Shown: one piece after another, positions 43,723 through 54,546 of the stretch
Layout of the letters: each line of letters opens with the position of its first letter
Numbering within the stretch: the stretch's first letter is position 1
Source of the DNA: Escherichia phage B9-1
Sequence record: OQ420740.1
Strand: one strand, 5' to 3'
DNA length: 64,000 nucleotides
The notes under the pieces: model-generated
What the model was told of the DNA's origin: nothing
What the model saw: the letters and a program-made list of their open reading frames with translations, nothing else
Databases searched by the model: none
Position numbers and translations under genes: made by a program

Positions 43723-43753
43723 AAAAAAGGGGCCAAATGGCCCCTTTCTTTTT
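43723..43753. terminator. bidirectional rho-independent terminator at strand switch
   Basis: Stem GGGGCC / GGCCCC, loop AAAT, flanked by AAAAAA upstream and TTTCTTTTT downstream; converging plus and minus blocks meet here. Confidence 0.75.
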
Positions 43754-46490: not shown

Positions 46491-46736
46491 TTATAGCTCC
46501 ACTAGCAAAGTGCTCTCAAAATGCCTCTCATGCAGACCACTATAAGGAACCACTTCCACAACACCGTCGCGGATGTATGGAGTCATCATGGTGACATAAT
46601 CACCGAACGGGTTGGCATTATCACTAACCACGACCACATGCTGCCCCTCCTTGGCAGAGTGCCAGATAGATCTGCACTTCATCATGTGTTCGAGAGCGCC
46701 AGGTAAAATCTTGTTACGTTCTTTACGGGTCTTCAT
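46491..46736 (-). CDS. hypothetical protein
   Basis: 81-aa ORF, tightly packed with neighbours. Confidence 0.45.
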   Translation of the reverse strand: MKTRKERNKILPGALEHMMKCRSIWHSAKEGQHVVVVSDNANPFGDYVTMMTPYIRDGVVEVVPYSGLHERHFESTLLVEL

Positions 46737-47182
46737 AACAGATATAGCTCCTTATGAAAGTGGGCTTTCAATTTCTCACCGAGAAACTTCTTGATACCTT
46801 CCTCTAAAGTGTTTTCGATGTAGTCCAGCTTAACTGCTTCGATAGACATATCATAGATCGCCAGCTCTAAGCTGTCAAGTCCCATCATAGCATGAACCAT
46901 AAGATTTTCATCTTCAGATACATTCAGGGGACTTCCTATAACATCTGGAGGCAGAATAGTTTCCCAATTATTCTGGGCGGTAGATCTCCCGCCATCCACC
47001 TTACGTCTCAGCTCGAATGTATTCTTAGTGTAGAACACTTCATAAGAAACGATACGACTGTCACTCTCATAATAGACGAAGTTCAAGTAGGAGCCCAGCC
47101 GTAGTCGGCAAACTTCTACCCCAAACCATTGTTTCTTATAAGAATTCAGGCTAATGCTGTCGCATTCACGTTTGCTCAACAC
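46733..47182 (-). CDS. hypothetical protein
   Basis: 149-aa ORF; stop overlaps next gene start. Confidence 0.5.
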   Translation of the reverse strand: MLSKRECDSISLNSYKKQWFGVEVCRLRLGSYLNFVYYESDSRIVSYEVFYTKNTFELRRKVDGGRSTAQNNWETILPPDVIGSPLNVSEDENLMVHAMMGLDSLELAIYDMSIEAVKLDYIENTLEEGIKKFLGEKLKAHFHKELYLL

Positions 47183-47198: not shown

Positions 47199-47432
47199 TT
47201 AATCTTCGTAAATAATGATTTCTGCTTTAGGTTTTCGTGCTTTCAGGTCCAGCTCTATCCAGTGCACCATCGCTGTTTCAAGAAAAACAGCCTGGATGCA
47301 TCCGTCTTCAGCGTGCCCTACCAGCATAACAAGATCTTCACATTCATCATCTGCATCACGGACATACAAGATCTCTCCAGATTCAAAGTCTTTCACAACC
47401 TGATTGCTGGATAATTTACGAATTTTTGCCAT
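47199..47432 (-). CDS. small protein, diverged member of tandem paralogue family
   Basis: 77 aa; pattern MAKIRKLSSNQ...FESGEILYVRDADDECEDLVMLV parallels the 87-aa paralogues upstream. Confidence 0.45.
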   Translation of the reverse strand: MAKIRKLSSNQVVKDFESGEILYVRDADDECEDLVMLVGHAEDGCIQAVFLETAMVHWIELDLKARKPKAEIIIYED

Positions 47433-47433
47433 A

Positions 47434-47697
47434 TCAGAAACCCTCTAAAAAGCTCTTGTAGAAAATAATCTCAGTATCCACACCAGTCACGATCTTGTCG
47501 TTCCTGATTTCATCTGTAAGATAGGTGTCAAAACGCAGCACCTGTGTGGTATTGTCACACATCCACTCGGCTGTTACCATGGCAAAAATCTTAGCATCTT
47601 CATTATCTGGTGTAAATGTCACCACCTCACCGCATTTAAACTTTTCGATAGGTTGCGTGTTAGCTTTTGGTTCTGCAATGGTGATTTTCGTGGTCAT
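47434..47697 (-). CDS. small protein, tandem paralogue 3
   Basis: 87 aa; shares length and motifs with 47697..47960 and 47960..48223. Confidence 0.5.
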   Translation of the reverse strand: MTTKITIAEPKANTQPIEKFKCGEVVTFTPDNEDAKIFAMVTAEWMCDNTTQVLRFDTYLTDEIRNDKIVTGVDTEIIFYKSFLEGF

Positions 47698-47960
47698 TAT
47701 TCTCCTCCTTCTTTTGAATAGCTTGTCTCTCCAAGGATGGTAATTTTGGTGTCAAGCTCTGTAACTTTCATGTTTGGTGGCAGATCGTACAACTCATTAT
47801 TTTCTAAATCGAACCCCCATACACAATGTTCCCCTGTTTTGACAATCATAACTATGTTTTGAATGCCGTCTCCGTCACAACTTACCACGGTCCCACATGG
47901 AAAACTGTCTGCACGCTTTTTGTTCTTCACTTTAGAATTGAATACAATGCTAGTAGCCAT
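47697..47960 (-). CDS. small protein, tandem paralogue 2
   Basis: 87 aa (MATSIVFNSKVKNKKRADSFPCGTVV...ITILGE); start/stop overlap with neighbours. Confidence 0.5.
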   Translation of the reverse strand: MATSIVFNSKVKNKKRADSFPCGTVVSCDGDGIQNIVMIVKTGEHCVWGFDLENNELYDLPPNMKVTELDTKITILGETSYSKEGGE

Positions 47961-48223
47961 TATTGTTCCTCCACCATAACTTCGCCAAGAATTTCTATGC
48001 AGGCATCCATTTCTGTAACAACCAAGGTGTGAGGTAGTTCTGCAAACACCTTTCTGAACAGGTCAAATACCCCAACATATATGTTTGCAGGATGTGATCT
48101 CACAACAAGTGCTGTATTCACATCTCCAAGTTCATCAACAAACATCACCACAGTACCTGGAGCTACTGAAGACAGATACTTCTTAGTTTTACGGTTGGAT
48201 GCAAATTTTAACTCTGTTGCCAT
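47960..48223 (-). CDS. small protein, tandem paralogue 1
   Basis: 87 aa (MATELKFASNRKTKKYLSSVAPGTVV...IEILGE); RBS AGGAGG before ATG. Confidence 0.5.
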   Translation of the reverse strand: MATELKFASNRKTKKYLSSVAPGTVVMFVDELGDVNTALVVRSHPANIYVGVFDLFRKVFAELPHTLVVTEMDACIEILGEVMVEEQ

Positions 48224-48238
48224 AAATAATCTCCTCCT

Positions 48239-49720
48239 TTATTTAACGTACTCGATTAATTCCACAGTTCTCCCAAAGCTAGGGATATAATTTTTATTAT
48301 ACCCTTCGGTGAGAACCCATAAAGTATCGTACTTTTTCCACTTGTTGTCAACAGCCTTTTGTTCAAAGTTATGCTCAAAGTATAGGTCGGTAAGGACGAT
48401 GACATCTTTTGCATTTGGTATGTTAGCATCCAGATACTCGAACACGCAGGCGGCTGTTGTGCCCCATGTTGAGTGGACCTCATAGTTGATCATCTCATCG
48501 ATGTTACCGCGAGTGTATACTTTAACCTCTCCAACCTCGGTTGACCAACAGAACATCGTAACCTTAAACTCTTTATACAAATTGCACAACCCGGTGATCT
48601 CATTGAACATTTTCTTTAAAGTTCTTTGTGAGATCGATCCAGAAACGTCTAAAGCCACCACAATATCTATAGTGTTTTCCGGATTACGACCAGGAACAAT
48701 AACGTGCTGATTCTTGTTTATAGCTCCAACTTTTCGCATTGTGGTGGTCAAAGACCCAGATCGGCGACCCGGTTTTCTGTAGGTTAACTCAGCCTTCCTT
48801 TTAGATAACATACGTTGCTTAATAATATCTATATAATTGATTACAGGCTTGCCTCTGTTTTTGACAAACTCGCGCACCGCCTCGGGGCAACGACCTCCTG
48901 AAGCTTGCATTGCTGCTTCCAACATGTCACCAGAGTCCTGCATGGCCTGATCTTTATCCGATTGACTGATTACTGGTTGCGGCTGATCATACCCCATAGC
49001 CTTTCCAAGATCATCACTAGTGCCACCGTTCCCGCTCATGTGATCATCGGTTTGTCGTTTATCTCCTTGGGAGTTCTCTCCTTTACCGTTCTTACTTTTA
49101 CCGCTATTCTGATCTCTTTGTTTATCAAGAACTGCATAGACGTTCTCAGCAATCCATCCATGAAACTTCATGTCGCAGTAGCAACTAGCTAAGAAGCCAA
49201 AAGGCTTACCTTTTACGAACTCAGTGCTTTTCCCCTTCGGGAAGAAAACACAAGGAGGCTTGCTAAAGTCAACCACAAGACCTGTGTTGATAACGTGATC
49301 ACAAGCAATATTGAACAGTTCCGGCTCAAAGCTTTTACCACGGACCAGATGATCACAGATAATATGCCCCACCTCATGTGACAGAAGAAAGGCCACCTCT
49401 TTCACAGATTTTGGGGAATAGAAAACCTCAGCCATCTCAAACTGCTTGTCAGTCAGAGATGCTTTAAGAATGGTTTTACGCTCATCTGCCAACCCCATAA
49501 TGAACTCAGGGCTGTAGTAGATGCGTTTATGGTCTGTTGCCATAGTGGAGCACCATGTGTGGTTTTCTACGAACTGCAACCCTGACAACAGTGTGCCATA
49601 AAACGGCAGCTTTTCAAGAAGGTACATGCGAGCGGCCTGCAGCATTCGCAAGGCATCATCTTTTTGTGCGGTAATGATTTCTGAACTTCTGCTATCCATT
49701 AAAACTCCAGAAGGGGCCAT
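48239..49720 (-). CDS. metallopeptidase-like (HExxH) plus von Willebrand factor A domain protein
   Basis: 493 aa; N-terminal region has LSHEVGHIICDH (HExxH); C-terminal region has MIDAS-type DVSGSIS in IDIVVALDVSGSISQ; this architecture typically partners with MoxR-type AAA+ ATPases. Confidence 0.6.
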   Translation of the reverse strand: MAPSGVLMDSRSSEIITAQKDDALRMLQAARMYLLEKLPFYGTLLSGLQFVENHTWCSTMATDHKRIYYSPEFIMGLADERKTILKASLTDKQFEMAEVFYSPKSVKEVAFLLSHEVGHIICDHLVRGKSFEPELFNIACDHVINTGLVVDFSKPPCVFFPKGKSTEFVKGKPFGFLASCYCDMKFHGWIAENVYAVLDKQRDQNSGKSKNGKGENSQGDKRQTDDHMSGNGGTSDDLGKAMGYDQPQPVISQSDKDQAMQDSGDMLEAAMQASGGRCPEAVREFVKNRGKPVINYIDIIKQRMLSKRKAELTYRKPGRRSGSLTTTMRKVGAINKNQHVIVPGRNPENTIDIVVALDVSGSISQRTLKKMFNEITGLCNLYKEFKVTMFCWSTEVGEVKVYTRGNIDEMINYEVHSTWGTTAACVFEYLDANIPNAKDVIVLTDLYFEHNFEQKAVDNKWKKYDTLWVLTEGYNKNYIPSFGRTVELIEYVK

Positions 49721-49732
49721 TGGCCCCTGTCA

Positions 49733-50722
49733 TTATTTAACGTGCTTGAAAATACCAGCCAACTCGGTCATTGTCATGCGAGTGGTCTTCATAAGGTCTG
49801 TCATAGCCTTCTCCATGATTGGAGATACTACCATGAAGTTACCTTTGGTGAAACCTTTGTTCCAGTCGGTAACTAATAGGGGTTTAAGTCCGGCACCGAG
49901 ACGTTCACCAGTTAAAGCACAACATTTTCGAATGTATGTGCTCTTAAACTGGCTGAATGACAGATCAACTTTCATACCTGCATCGTAGAACGTCTGGCAA
50001 TAGAAAGTGTAAGCTTTGGCAATCTCAACATCGTCAGGCAGTGCAGGAACCTCTTCTGTAAGCTCTTCTTCGACCCCTTGAGGCTCTTTTTCCTCTTCGT
50101 AAGCCTGTTGCGTCATCTCTTCAATCTCCTCTACTACAGGCTCGTTTACAATGTCAGAAATGTGCTTGTTGGCTCCACGATTAGCCATGAAGTTTTTAAA
50201 ATCCTGCATTGGTGACATATCTTCCTCCCATTCTTCGTCAAAGAGTGCTAGTTTATCCTCTTCCGTTCCATATTGCAAGATGAAATCTTCAAAAGTGTAA
50301 TCACCTTTCAATTTCTCCATACGCTCTTCGCTCAGGTGGAGCATCATCTGCTGGACAATTTTTCGATCAGTTTTGTCTTTAATCAAGACTGCGGTCTTTT
50401 TATCTACCAGGCAGTCCTTTAGGGAGTTGCATCTCAATCCCACCACACAACAATTATCAACCGCATAAGGACCTTCATCATCTATCCGCTCCAGAGATGG
50501 GTAGAAAGGATTTCCCAGTCCGTTTTCATCTGTGTGCATGTCGAAAGGTATAAGGGTATAGTCGCATACTCCCTCTCCTAAAAGTTTTTTACCAAATAGG
50601 AGATATTCTTCCCATGACAGGTTGAACTCTATATCCCGTTTCCGTGCGTTATTCTGTTTGCGTCTGTATTTTTTGAGCAAGCGCTCTAACTCTTCTGGTG
50701 TATAATATTTTTCAAGATTCAT
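49733..50722 (-). CDS. HNH-like nuclease domain protein
   Basis: ATG at 50722 chosen because the ORF-track TTG at 50782 is the -35 of the minus promoter; segment FDMHTDENG...PSLERIDDEGPYAVDNCCVVGLRCNSLK resembles phage HNH endonuclease cores. Confidence 0.45.
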   Translation of the reverse strand: MNLEKYYTPEELERLLKKYRRKQNNARKRDIEFNLSWEEYLLFGKKLLGEGVCDYTLIPFDMHTDENGLGNPFYPSLERIDDEGPYAVDNCCVVGLRCNSLKDCLVDKKTAVLIKDKTDRKIVQQMMLHLSEERMEKLKGDYTFEDFILQYGTEEDKLALFDEEWEEDMSPMQDFKNFMANRGANKHISDIVNEPVVEEIEEMTQQAYEEEKEPQGVEEELTEEVPALPDDVEIAKAYTFYCQTFYDAGMKVDLSFSQFKSTYIRKCCALTGERLGAGLKPLLVTDWNKGFTKGNFMVVSPIMEKAMTDLMKTTRMTMTELAGIFKHVK

Positions 50723-50753: not shown

Positions 50754-50782
50754 ATCTTACCAAGTGCCTGAGAAGATGTCAA
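50754..50782 (-). promoter_or_regulatory. sigma70-like promoter for minus-strand block (TTGACA, 17 bp, TAAGAT)
   Basis: On minus strand: TTGACA (50782-50777), 17-nt spacer, TAAGAT (50759-50754); about 35 nt upstream of ATG at 50722. Confidence 0.5.
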
Positions 50783-53092: not shown

Positions 53093-53362
53093 ATGTTATA
53101 CCAGCAGTACGAACTTCGTGCAGAAAAAGAATTAAATTTTGACAAAGATATTCACAGATATTATTATGGGAAAGTTAGAGGGCAAGCAAGAAAGTGTACT
53201 CCAACACTCTTTTATGCCAGCAGACGACTAGCGCCAGAAGAGGCAACAGCAGAAAGGGTTGCATATGGCTGGAGAGTTGCGTATGATATTGACAGATCCG
53301 ATGTGATGTCTGTTTTGGAAAACTTTGAAAACACTTACACACAAGTAGAGGACTTTTACTAA
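53093..53362 (+). CDS. hypothetical protein
   Basis: 89-aa ORF; stop overlaps ATPase start. Confidence 0.45.
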   Translation: MLYQQYELRAEKELNFDKDIHRYYYGKVRGQARKCTPTLFYASRRLAPEEATAERVAYGWRVAYDIDRSDVMSVLENFENTYTQVEDFY

Positions 53363-54546
53363 TGTCAAGAAACGTATTCGAAAGTGGTCAAATCACTGTC
53401 CGCGAGTTGCCAGCTATTATTCAATTTGCCCAGCGTCATAACCGATCTGTCCTGATTTTAGGACCGATGGGCGTGGGGAAGAGCCAGGTGATGAAGCAGA
53501 TTGCTGATAGTATGTTCGGTGAGCGAGATGACAACCTTGTTGACGTGCGACTGTCAGATAAAGACCCTGCTGACTTATCTGGGCTACCTATCCCTGTAGA
53601 GTCGGATGGGACTACACGTACAGTGTTTGCAATTCCAGAATTTTGGCCTGCAGATCCGGACTGGAGCGGAATTATCTTTCTAGACGAGCTTACTCATGCA
53701 GATAACTACCTGCAGAAGGTTGCAATGCAAATTATGCTCGACCACAAGTGCGGCACCTATGCATTTCCTAAGGGCTCTGTTTTTGTAGCTGCAGGTAACC
53801 GTGCTACAGACGGTGCTGTTCTTTCGGCGCTCGAAGCTCCTCTAGCTAACCGCTTTATCATTGTAGAAGTTACAAGCAGTGCAGAGGTGTTTATTGAGGA
53901 CTATGCATTCCTTAATGGGGTGCACTCCTCTGTAATTGGATATCTGAAAAGAGTCCCATCAGCCATTGATAATTATGAGGCCATGGCTGAGATTAATTGT
54001 CCATCTTTTGCCACACCGCGATCTTGGGTTGCTGCATCTGACATCTTGCACGATTTTGACAGCGGTATTATTTCTGACGCTATGGCCCGTGTCCTTCTAC
54101 AAGGTGCCATTGGTCACACTGCAGCGGTAGAAATTTGGACCTACCACACCAAGAAACGAAACTTGCCAGAAATCGGTCGGATTATGGCAGGAGGCTGCAA
54201 AGAATATGTAGGTCCTAAGCAGCCAGACATCTTGTGGATTCTGGGGTCTGAAGGTTGTATCGCTATTCGTAATATGATGGAAAATGCAAGTATCTCCGAC
54301 GAAGATCTCGTCAGCTGTGTGGCAAACTTCCTTGATTTCCTTTGGGAAAATTTCAAGGATGAGAACCGAGACTTTGTATTCTCAGTCTTTATGGCGATGA
54401 TGAAACCTAACGCCTTAGGAAATGCCTTACTTATTGGTAAAGGCAGGGACAAGATCGTTGCTCAGCTGATCAAAGCATACCCAAACCTGATGAAGATTGT
54501 AAAAGAGTTTGGTGAAGAGTTTAGCGCCATTTTAGCTAAAGCTTGA
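53362..54546 (+). CDS. AAA+ ATPase, MoxR/CbbQ/CobS-like
   Basis: 394 aa; Walker A GPMGVGKS (aa 34-41), Walker B IIFLDELTHAD; size and motif spacing typical of MoxR-type ATPases that pair with vWA proteins. Confidence 0.65.
   Translation: MSRNVFESGQITVRELPAIIQFAQRHNRSVLILGPMGVGKSQVMKQIADSMFGERDDNLVDVRLSDKDPADLSGLPIPVESDGTTRTVFAIPEFWPADPDWSGIIFLDELTHADNYLQKVAMQIMLDHKCGTYAFPKGSVFVAAGNRATDGAVLSALEAPLANRFIIVEVTSSAEVFIEDYAFLNGVHSSVIGYLKRVPSAIDNYEAMAEINCPSFATPRSWVAASDILHDFDSGIISDAMARVLLQGAIGHTAAVEIWTYHTKKRNLPEIGRIMAGGCKEYVGPKQPDILWILGSEGCIAIRNMMENASISDEDLVSCVANFLDFLWENFKDENRDFVFSVFMAMMKPNALGNALLIGKGRDKIVAQLIKAYPNLMKIVKEFGEEFSAILAKA

Follow-up and report, generated by a model that had tools for sequence, protein, structure and literature searches.

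A tandem family of small acidic proteins in the predicted early operon of rV5-like phages

Vequintaviruses are common candidates for therapy or biocontrol of Escherichia coli O157 and of uropathogenic E. coli (UPEC), and most of their predicted early genes are unannotated. We consider here a tandem array of four such small genes in Escherichia phage B9-1 (sequence record OQ420740.1), located at positions 47,199 to 48,223 of a stretch of 64,000 nucleotides that we call the window. Over 3.4 kb it shares 99.4% identity with Escherichia phage vB_EcoM-ECP26, which makes the window that of a Vequintavirus, an rV5-like myovirus. The best described counterpart of the locus is that of the type phage rV5, where ORF11-26 (ORF, open reading frame) make one transcription unit, with promoters of the sigma-70 type, and where gp11 was described as a homologue of Srd (PMC3606486). 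Paralogues or duplication are not mentioned in the 2013 paper on rV5, and none of the annotated Vequintavirus records that were examined, ECP26 and the BASEL phage Bas49 among them, gives the genes of the family any label but that of hypothetical protein.

Tandem multiplication of a small accessory viral gene is also the mark of gene accordions. Poxvirus K3L is one of them. Another is the amplification of tifA in phage T4 against toxIN (PMC9391042). Accordions, however, consist of recent, near-identical and unstable copies selected for dosage, whereas the copies described here are 13-37% identical to one another, evolve under purifying selection and are fixed in number for each haplotype. We rejected the accordion as an explanation of the array, the polymorphism between three and four copies being a cassette replacement, not a gain or loss of repeat units. 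The account that we consider well supported, and very probably correct, combines four elements: the genes make one homologous family, with a predicted SH3-like barrel as its fold, expanded from one to four copies and subject to a cassette swap at its first position.

The array and its four paralogues

The genes are named g1 to g4 in array order. All of them belong to the minus strand, g1 having the highest coordinates:

47960..48223, minus strand: g1, ORF of 87 amino acids (aa); phrog_10698 at 1.4e-41; predicted acidic small beta-barrel protein, pI 5.0; copy 1 of the variable slot
47697..47960, minus strand: g2, ORF of 87 aa; phrog_10698 at 4.8e-41; second of the variable-slot pair
47434..47697, minus strand: g3, ORF of 87 aa; phrog_12861; divergent paralogue, highly conserved
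47199..47432, minus strand: g4, ORF of 77 aa; phrog_12046; most divergent paralogue

An earlier annotation made from the letters alone (the sequence-only reading) had proposed four back-to-back ORFs in tandem, and this is indeed what the locus contains. It had also proposed that their start and stop codons overlap: this is the case at the g1/g2 and g2/g3 junctions, where TAATG makes a one-base overlap, and not at the g3/g4 junction, where the genes stand one base apart. A Shine-Dalgarno sequence of the GGAGG type is found 7-9 nt before each of the four ATGs (for g1, AGGAGG, 8 nt upstream), those of g2, g3 and g4 being located in the last codons of the preceding gene, which accounts in part for the Glu/Gly-rich C-terminal tails of the proteins (VEEQ, KEGGE, LEGF). 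From this tight packing, with its overlaps and its ribosome-binding sites embedded in the preceding gene, we infer co-transcription and translational coupling. A scan found no terminator-like site inside the array; the promoter-like sites that it gave there agree with the consensus at only 9 of 12 positions, and many other sites of the same scan are just as good.

The four proteins are acidic (pI 4.2-5.0), with an N-terminal segment of 20 residues that is basic in g1 and g2; relative to its paralogues, g4 is devoid of four N-terminal residues and of the C-terminal tail. The N-terminal motif that had been ascribed to all of them is shared by g1 and g2 but degenerate in g3 and g4, the only invariant positions being M1, one Gly and one Ile. 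Its element CGTVV is the g2 version; it reads PGTVV in g1 and CGEVV in g3.

Are these genes true paralogues, and as strongly diverged as had been claimed? For g1 and g2, which both fall in phrog_10698, the answer is immediate, with 36% identity, a BLASTP expectation of 6e-11 and a Smith-Waterman z of 18. For g3 and g4, 13-20% identical to the others with marginal pairwise scores (z 0.7-4.7), similarity beyond chance is established through profiles and intermediates. A profile named A8, made of g1, g2 and outside relatives and including neither g3 nor g4, retrieved g3 at 7.5e-7 and g4 at 2.4e-4 from 1111 ORFs, the next match, unrelated, being at 0.068. Both were aligned nearly full length by hhalign, at 92.8% probability and 4e-7 for g3, 66.6% and 5.4e-5 for g4. 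Furthermore, P0034, a single-copy homologue from a sister clade, resembles each of g1 to g4 (z 7.4, 8.4, 6.0 and 6.7, respectively), the score being reached by 0-1 of 2000 shuffles. When 773 ORFs were pooled, g3 and g4, and g2 once g1 is set aside, had one another as their best matches other than themselves, and an alignment of 29 sequences is collinear over its full length. To judge from these comparisons g1-g4 are one homologous family, and the three PHROG families that databases keep apart are thereby united.

Against this conclusion one might argue that g3 and g4 resemble g1 and g2 by chance or by convergence of short beta-rich ORFs, or that the genes are remnants of a single decayed gene. 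Indeed, compared pairwise with g1, neither g3 nor g4 scores above noise (z 0.7-1.4), and the first, shallow pairwise and profile comparisons were weak for g4 (P 0.005 and 0.04), to be strengthened once outside relatives were added. This interpretation is nevertheless largely refuted and we grant it next to no probability: profiles built without g3 and g4 recover both of them well above all other ORFs, P0034 bridges the four proteins, the alignment is collinear over its full length, no gene lacks a start and a Shine-Dalgarno sequence of its own, the related genomes examined keep the frames intact, and the ratio of non-synonymous to synonymous divergence (dN/dS, or omega) is well under 1. Fragments of one pseudogene, in particular, are ruled out, as each ORF covers the whole domain, g2 and g4 are modelled as complete barrels, and dN/dS is 0.00-0.23 wherever dS is unsaturated.

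The limits of the family were explored as well. No further member was found among the other ORFs of the window, nor in profile searches of the genomes of Av-05, SPLA5a, Seu621 and Hena1. The Av-05 protein gp176, which is the A8 match at 0.068, was rejected because the match is a local stretch of 25 residues, and genes of 85-88 aa located just upstream of the metallopeptidase gene of other genera were rejected as relocated homologues (best E 2.3). Finally, DUF1883 (PF08980), which appears in the name of the nr record of one relative, P0068, was dismissed: hmmscan of P0068, P0034 and eight others at E up to 10 gave no DUF1883 match, and g1-g4 have none in Pfam at E up to 0.1.

Origin, constraint and a polymorphic first slot

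The family is rare. An exhaustive search with a hidden Markov model gave only 11 matches in 1.84 billion cluster representatives, among them P0033 and P0034, while a word-indexed search with g2 returned three close clusters only. Two giant repeat proteins, P0032 and P0035 (2210 and 2481 aa), were rejected as members, their scores being sums of short-motif matches. All the real matches that could be placed belong to rV5-like phage contigs. At the nucleotide level, 118 phage records match the region at >=90% identity. Sixteen 'Campylobacter phage' records (MG0656xx, host C. jejuni) are likewise at least 90% identical across the region, and the probable explanation is that these genomes are mislabelled or contaminants.

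Copy number is conveniently told with the two neighbours of the array as landmarks:

48239..49720, minus strand: DUF2201 metallopeptidase with a VWA-like domain, upstream neighbour in the operon; Pfam DUF2201_N 1.7e-28, DUF2201 4.1e-11; 62% identity to the protein encoded just ahead of the single-copy gene in the L012 clade
46733..47182, minus strand: 149-aa protein (p149), downstream neighbour; phrog_6790; a 47% identical homologue comes right after the single-copy gene in contigs L022-L024

Around these landmarks, the number of copies differs among relatives, being 4, 3, 1 or 0. The three-copy form is that of other Vequintaviruses, described below; the other states are as follows, the single-copy counts resting on the flanks that were fetched for L012 and L018:

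L003, metallopeptidase 81% identical to that of the window: four copies, of 88, 85, 87 and 77 aa, in the same order
L012 clade, represented by five independent contigs (47-141 kb) with a metallopeptidase at 62% identity: one copy; the metallopeptidase gene, one gene of 82-83 aa, then the homologue of the 149-aa gene
Avunavirus, Seunavirus, Mydovirus and Henunavirus: no copy; a gene of 125-144 aa directly after the metallopeptidase gene
L018, about 142 kb, with a neighbouring 418-aa protein 62-63% identical to its Vequintavirus homologues: one ORF14-like copy in another genome block, between NT5C-like and Cys-rich genes

For the gene directly after the metallopeptidase in the four genera without a copy, SPLA5a is the only case in which homology to p149 was confirmed, through the PHROG label. 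In a neighbour-joining tree g1, g2 and ORF14/P0033 come together, the P0034 clade is set apart, and g3 and g4 sit on long branches. The simplest history starts from one gene in the slot between the metallopeptidase gene and p149, an arrangement that the L012 sister clade has kept, followed by tandem duplication to four copies before the split of Vequintavirus and L003, with occasional movement of a single-gene cassette. The array is a family expansion specific to this lineage, derived from one acidic protein of about 85 aa that has so far been met with in rV5-like phages only. Identities of 13-37% combined with purifying selection mean that duplication was old and that divergence followed.

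The first position of the array exists in two states. Among 117 Vequintavirus records, 43 carry the pair g1+g2, and the remaining 74 carry a single gene of 85 aa, known as ORF14 in rV5. The product of the latter is about 40% identical to g1 and to g2, and 63% identical to P0033. The type phage rV5 as well as phage Bas54 have this three-gene form, without g1+g2, and the PHROG families correspond accordingly: phrog_10698, phrog_12861 and phrog_12046 are rV5 ORF14, ORF15 and ORF16, and bas54_0054, bas54_0053 and bas54_0052, respectively. What is exchanged can be delimited on the window:

47709..48208, minus strand: replaceable cassette comprising almost all of g1+g2, swapped for a 230-bp segment with rV5 ORF14 in other members of the genus

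When the window is compared with rV5 by blastn, the flanks align at 92-94% identity and end at 48209 and 47708, with nothing alignable between. One end falls within the first five codons of g1/ORF14 and the other about 11 nt before the start of g3, so that breakpoints at gene ends point to a clean replacement of the cassette at gene boundaries. Phage S127 BCL3 is of the ORF14 type though its metallopeptidase is 99.6% identical to that of the window: the type of the slot does not follow the flanks. This replacement of g1+g2 by a single related gene is the only sign of rapid turnover at the locus, and it makes a natural experiment for host-specific effects.

The sequence-only reading had called the family diversifying. 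In the selective sense of the word this is not borne out. We computed pairwise dN/dS by the Nei-Gojobori method (NG86) for g1-g4 against four members of the genus and against L003. Within the genus, omega ranges from 0.00 to 0.14 for the four genes, far below 1; all copies evolve under purifying selection, and their divergence is old, not ongoing. Against L003, it is 0.23 for g1, 0.034 for g3 and 0.058 for g4, the comparison for g2 being limited by saturation of dS (dN 0.27); across comparisons, g4 stays at 0.06-0.14. The extreme case is g3, whose product is 100% identical to that of rV5 ORF15, with 26 synonymous and 0 non-synonymous changes for a dS of 0.78. With 97% and 92% identity to their L003 orthologues, g3 and g4 are the best conserved proteins of the region compared, where neighbours are at 36-90%, while g1 (55%) and g2 (64-70%) evolve at a rate typical of the block. 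Positively selected arms-race genes were therefore rejected as a description of the array, with pairwise omega of 0.00-0.14 in the genus and 0.03-0.23 against L003.

In several comparisons within the genus, the synonymous divergence of g3 and g4 exceeds that of their flanks, for example with dS 0.78 versus 0.15-0.36 in the comparison with rV5 and 1.3 versus 0.15-0.33 in that with phita32, while the proteins barely change. This contrast between a segment and its surroundings suggests an older or mosaic ancestry of g3/g4. Another gene of the block, p81 (81 aa, 46491-46736; phrog_4868 and, weakly, phrog_12865), is at the nucleotide level the most divergent one within the genus, with an identity of about 87-88% and dS of 0.53-0.61.

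Members of the family are already deposited in databases as hypothetical proteins. What the present comparison adds is the union of three PHROG families into one, an ancestor with a single copy, a first slot that is polymorphic, and a constraint on g3 that is extreme.

Predicted fold and candidate functions

The proteins g2 and g4 were modelled with AlphaFold2, from alignments that each contained other paralogues. Both models are all-beta, that of g2 with a pLDDT of 79 and a pTM of 0.66, that of g4, a five-strand barrel, with a pLDDT of 83.6 and a pTM of 0.71. They are barrels of five to six strands with corresponding strand orders, and in the structure database BFVD each of them retrieves its own kin together with a set of neighbours common to both. 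Fold prediction and fold search, which the sequence-only reading had recommended, thus gave a consistent beta-barrel for g2 and g4, and no specific structural match. The family fold, as modelled for g2 and g4, is an acidic small beta-barrel of the SH3/Tudor/KOW-like class. Nearest to both models in BFVD are small phage beta-barrel proteins of 70-90 aa (gp21 of N4, and proteins of 172-1, ECBP2, LAMP, SU7 and Cronus; TM 0.52-0.68), of similar length and many of them from enterobacterial phages. Their identity to g2 and g4 is only 10-18%, with Foldseek E values of 0.003-0.07, and the resemblance adds no mechanism.

Familiar SH3-like barrels (Tudor, KOW, the C-terminal domain of ribosomal protein L2, the C-terminal domain of LexA/CI) have no significant sequence relationship to the family. 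The structural scores against such domains are low, typical of any such barrel, and the best PDB sequence match, the KOW domain of Spt5, has a non-significant E of 0.085. Neither the aromatic cage of Tudor domains nor the Gly-rich KOW motif was seen on reading the family alignments. KOW and L2 domains bind RNA, and the familiar barrels named above are parts of larger proteins, whereas the proteins of the family are acidic and stand alone. Searches of Pfam, NCBIfam and PDB sequences with family members gave nothing significant, and no catalytic motif was found.

Genomic context is the second source of hints. The array had been placed in a divergently transcribed block of the early type, and the block does correspond to rV5 transcription unit 11-26, with its sigma-70-type promoters and an Srd-like gene at its head. 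In the window, the genes of the plus strand are structural as far as about 43.7 kb; the block on the minus strand extends over 44.5-50.8 kb, and from 50.9 kb another block on the plus strand follows. At the head of the minus-strand block are found:

49733..50722, minus strand: homologue of the Srd-like anti-sigma protein / sigma-70 decoy, first gene of the operon; phrog_4592 8e-13, phrog_1400 5.8e-10; CDS boundaries from ECP26
50754..50782, minus strand: predicted promoter-like site of the sigma-70 type, TTGACA-17-TAAGAT with TG, from a consensus scan; at the position of rV5 P11

The rV5 record has the sigma-70 promoter P11 annotated before ORF11 and the next promoter before ORF20, which implies that ORF11-19 share P11. 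The array is probably expressed early, co-transcribed with the Srd-like gene from a promoter of the host type.

The third source is a preprint on transposon insertion (HIDEN-SEQ) in phage Bas54 (10.1101/2025.11.20.689424). The four rows for array genes and their neighbour are all non-essential on K-12, and we treat the depletion data as one comparison, K-12 versus the UPEC isolate CFE311 (sheet S7), given below as TA sites hit and log2 fold change (log2FC):

bas54_0052 (g4): 12/12 TA sites hit on K-12; log2FC -1.32 on CFE311, q 0.68
bas54_0053 (g3): 13/15 TA sites hit on K-12; log2FC +0.33 on CFE311, q 1.0
bas54_0054 (ORF14 type): 17/17 TA sites hit on K-12; log2FC +0.46 on CFE311, q 1.0
bas54_0055 (metallopeptidase): 81/86 TA sites hit on K-12; log2FC -2.20 on CFE311, q 0.009

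The numbers for bas54_0051-0055 are identical at two places in supplementary file 9 of this preprint, where the sheets for CFE303 and CFE311 may be duplicated. That g3 is almost invariant, although the laboratory phage can do without its orthologue, speaks for a function of importance in nature, and not on K-12.

Size, charge, fold class, the lack of catalytic features, the position in the operon and dispensability together suggest that the proteins of the array may be non-enzymatic binders, which would modulate or block host proteins. We hold this reading tentatively, our confidence in it being even or slightly less. For g3/g4, the conserved pair, the target would be invariant; for the first slot, filled by g1+g2 or by a gene of the ORF14 type and swapped by recombination at gene boundaries, it would be one that differs from one host strain to the next, such as a defence system. 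In a bolder version, which we regard as unlikely, the array would be a two-part module of new SH3-like inhibitors: g3/g4 would disable a conserved host factor, the swappable slot would set which strain-specific defence is overcome, and the 43-versus-74 polymorphism would be a host-range determinant maintained by recombination.

Several observations weigh against the idea of host-protein binders. On CFE311, the one isolate checked for these genes, no host-specific requirement appears for the Bas54 orthologues of g3, g4 and the slot gene, none of which is significantly depleted (q >=0.68); redundancy between paralogues could mask the effects of single genes. The near-invariance of g3 would fit a role in the phage's own machinery just as well. 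The barrel fold is generic and says nothing on the target, and, the g4 model having been built with an alignment that contained the other paralogues, it is no independent evidence that the fold is shared. Early expression, finally, rests on predicted promoters.

The same data bear on a more radical possibility, namely that all four proteins are dedicated anti-defence proteins, each directed against a different immune system, which would make the array a counter-defence island. Small, acidic, predicted early and laboratory-dispensable proteins would suit such a role, as would a first slot that is exchanged between genomes otherwise 92-94% identical, and a different phage of 142 kb carries an ORF14-like gene, too, as a lone cassette located in another block. 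The preprint reports that the MoxR ATPase of Bas54 and bas54_0140 are required against a predicted defence system, DS-28 (10.1101/2025.11.20.689424), and the metallopeptidase next to the array is conditionally needed on CFE311 in the rows given above. The three Bas54 orthologues of the array, however, show no significant depletion on that isolate, and zero amino acid changes in g3 across a dS of 0.78 would be unusual in an arms race with variable defences. No match of the family to a characterised inhibitor was found in Pfam, NCBIfam, PHROG or PDB. On balance, we consider a counter-defence island rather unlikely.

Tudor/KOW-like domains of UvrD/PcrA, Mfd, CarD and NusG bind RNA polymerase. It could be, then, that the proteins serve host takeover by binding to a conserved core machine, such as RNA polymerase, alongside the Srd-like anti-sigma protein, with which the array shares its operon. 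The strong conservation of g3/g4 would fit an invariant host target, and it is a KOW domain, that of Spt5, which tops the PDB sequence matches. Yet this match is not significant and the structural scores, which are low, are those of any SH3-like barrel; in the Bas54 data K-12 is infected without need of these genes; and the other Vequintavirinae genera that were checked retain the Srd-like gene but have no member of the family. Binding to a core machine therefore seems distinctly unlikely to us.

We deem it very unlikely that the proteins work as adaptors, substrates or regulators of the pair made by the phage MoxR ATPase and the VWA-metallopeptidase. Position speaks for it, the ancestral slot being directly downstream of the DUF2201/VWA gene both in the window and in the sister clade, as do the requirement of MoxR against DS-28 and the depletion of the metallopeptidase orthologue on CFE311, both from the preprint. 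The Bas54 orthologues of the array, however, are without this CFE311 phenotype of the metallopeptidase, the MoxR and metallopeptidase genes are retained in four other genera that have no member of the family, and the copy of the P0044 type is located elsewhere, adjoining an NT5C-like gene.

The stakes are easily stated: should the proteins turn out to be inhibitors, a new small fold family would join the phage repertoire of counter-defence or takeover; if not, they make a well-documented lineage-specific family of paralogues.

Neighbouring genes and database records

A few further features of the region deserve mention. In rV5 a bidirectional terminator follows the tail-fibre genes, between genes 26 and 27 (PMC3606486). 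A perfect GC-rich palindromic hairpin, flanked by runs of T and A, is found in the window at 43726-43747, where it separates the last tail-fibre gene from the block on the minus strand, and it matches this terminator.

By position, a 394-aa protein of the window (53362-54546) corresponds to the MoxR ATPase of Bas54 (bas54_0063); its only Pfam match is a weak one to AAA_14, and its operon is divergent from that of the metallopeptidase. The metallopeptidase gene, intact with 493 aa in the window and in most relatives, is split in rV5 into two overlapping ORFs (ORF12/ORF13; L015 1257-2718). The two pieces are joined by tblastn, and a frameshift or a sequencing error is the probable cause of the split.

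In RefSeq, names derived from PHROG look misannotated for several genes of this operon: the metallopeptidase and the Srd-like protein are both called 'HNH endonuclease', and the 149-aa protein 'tail protein'. Finally, in an uncultured rV5-like phage (L012 4119-5258, also in L013), a TnpB / IS605 OrfB-like gene (Cas12f1-like_TNB, 379 aa) is inserted between the fucosyltransferase-like and Srd-like genes, in the divergent promoter region.

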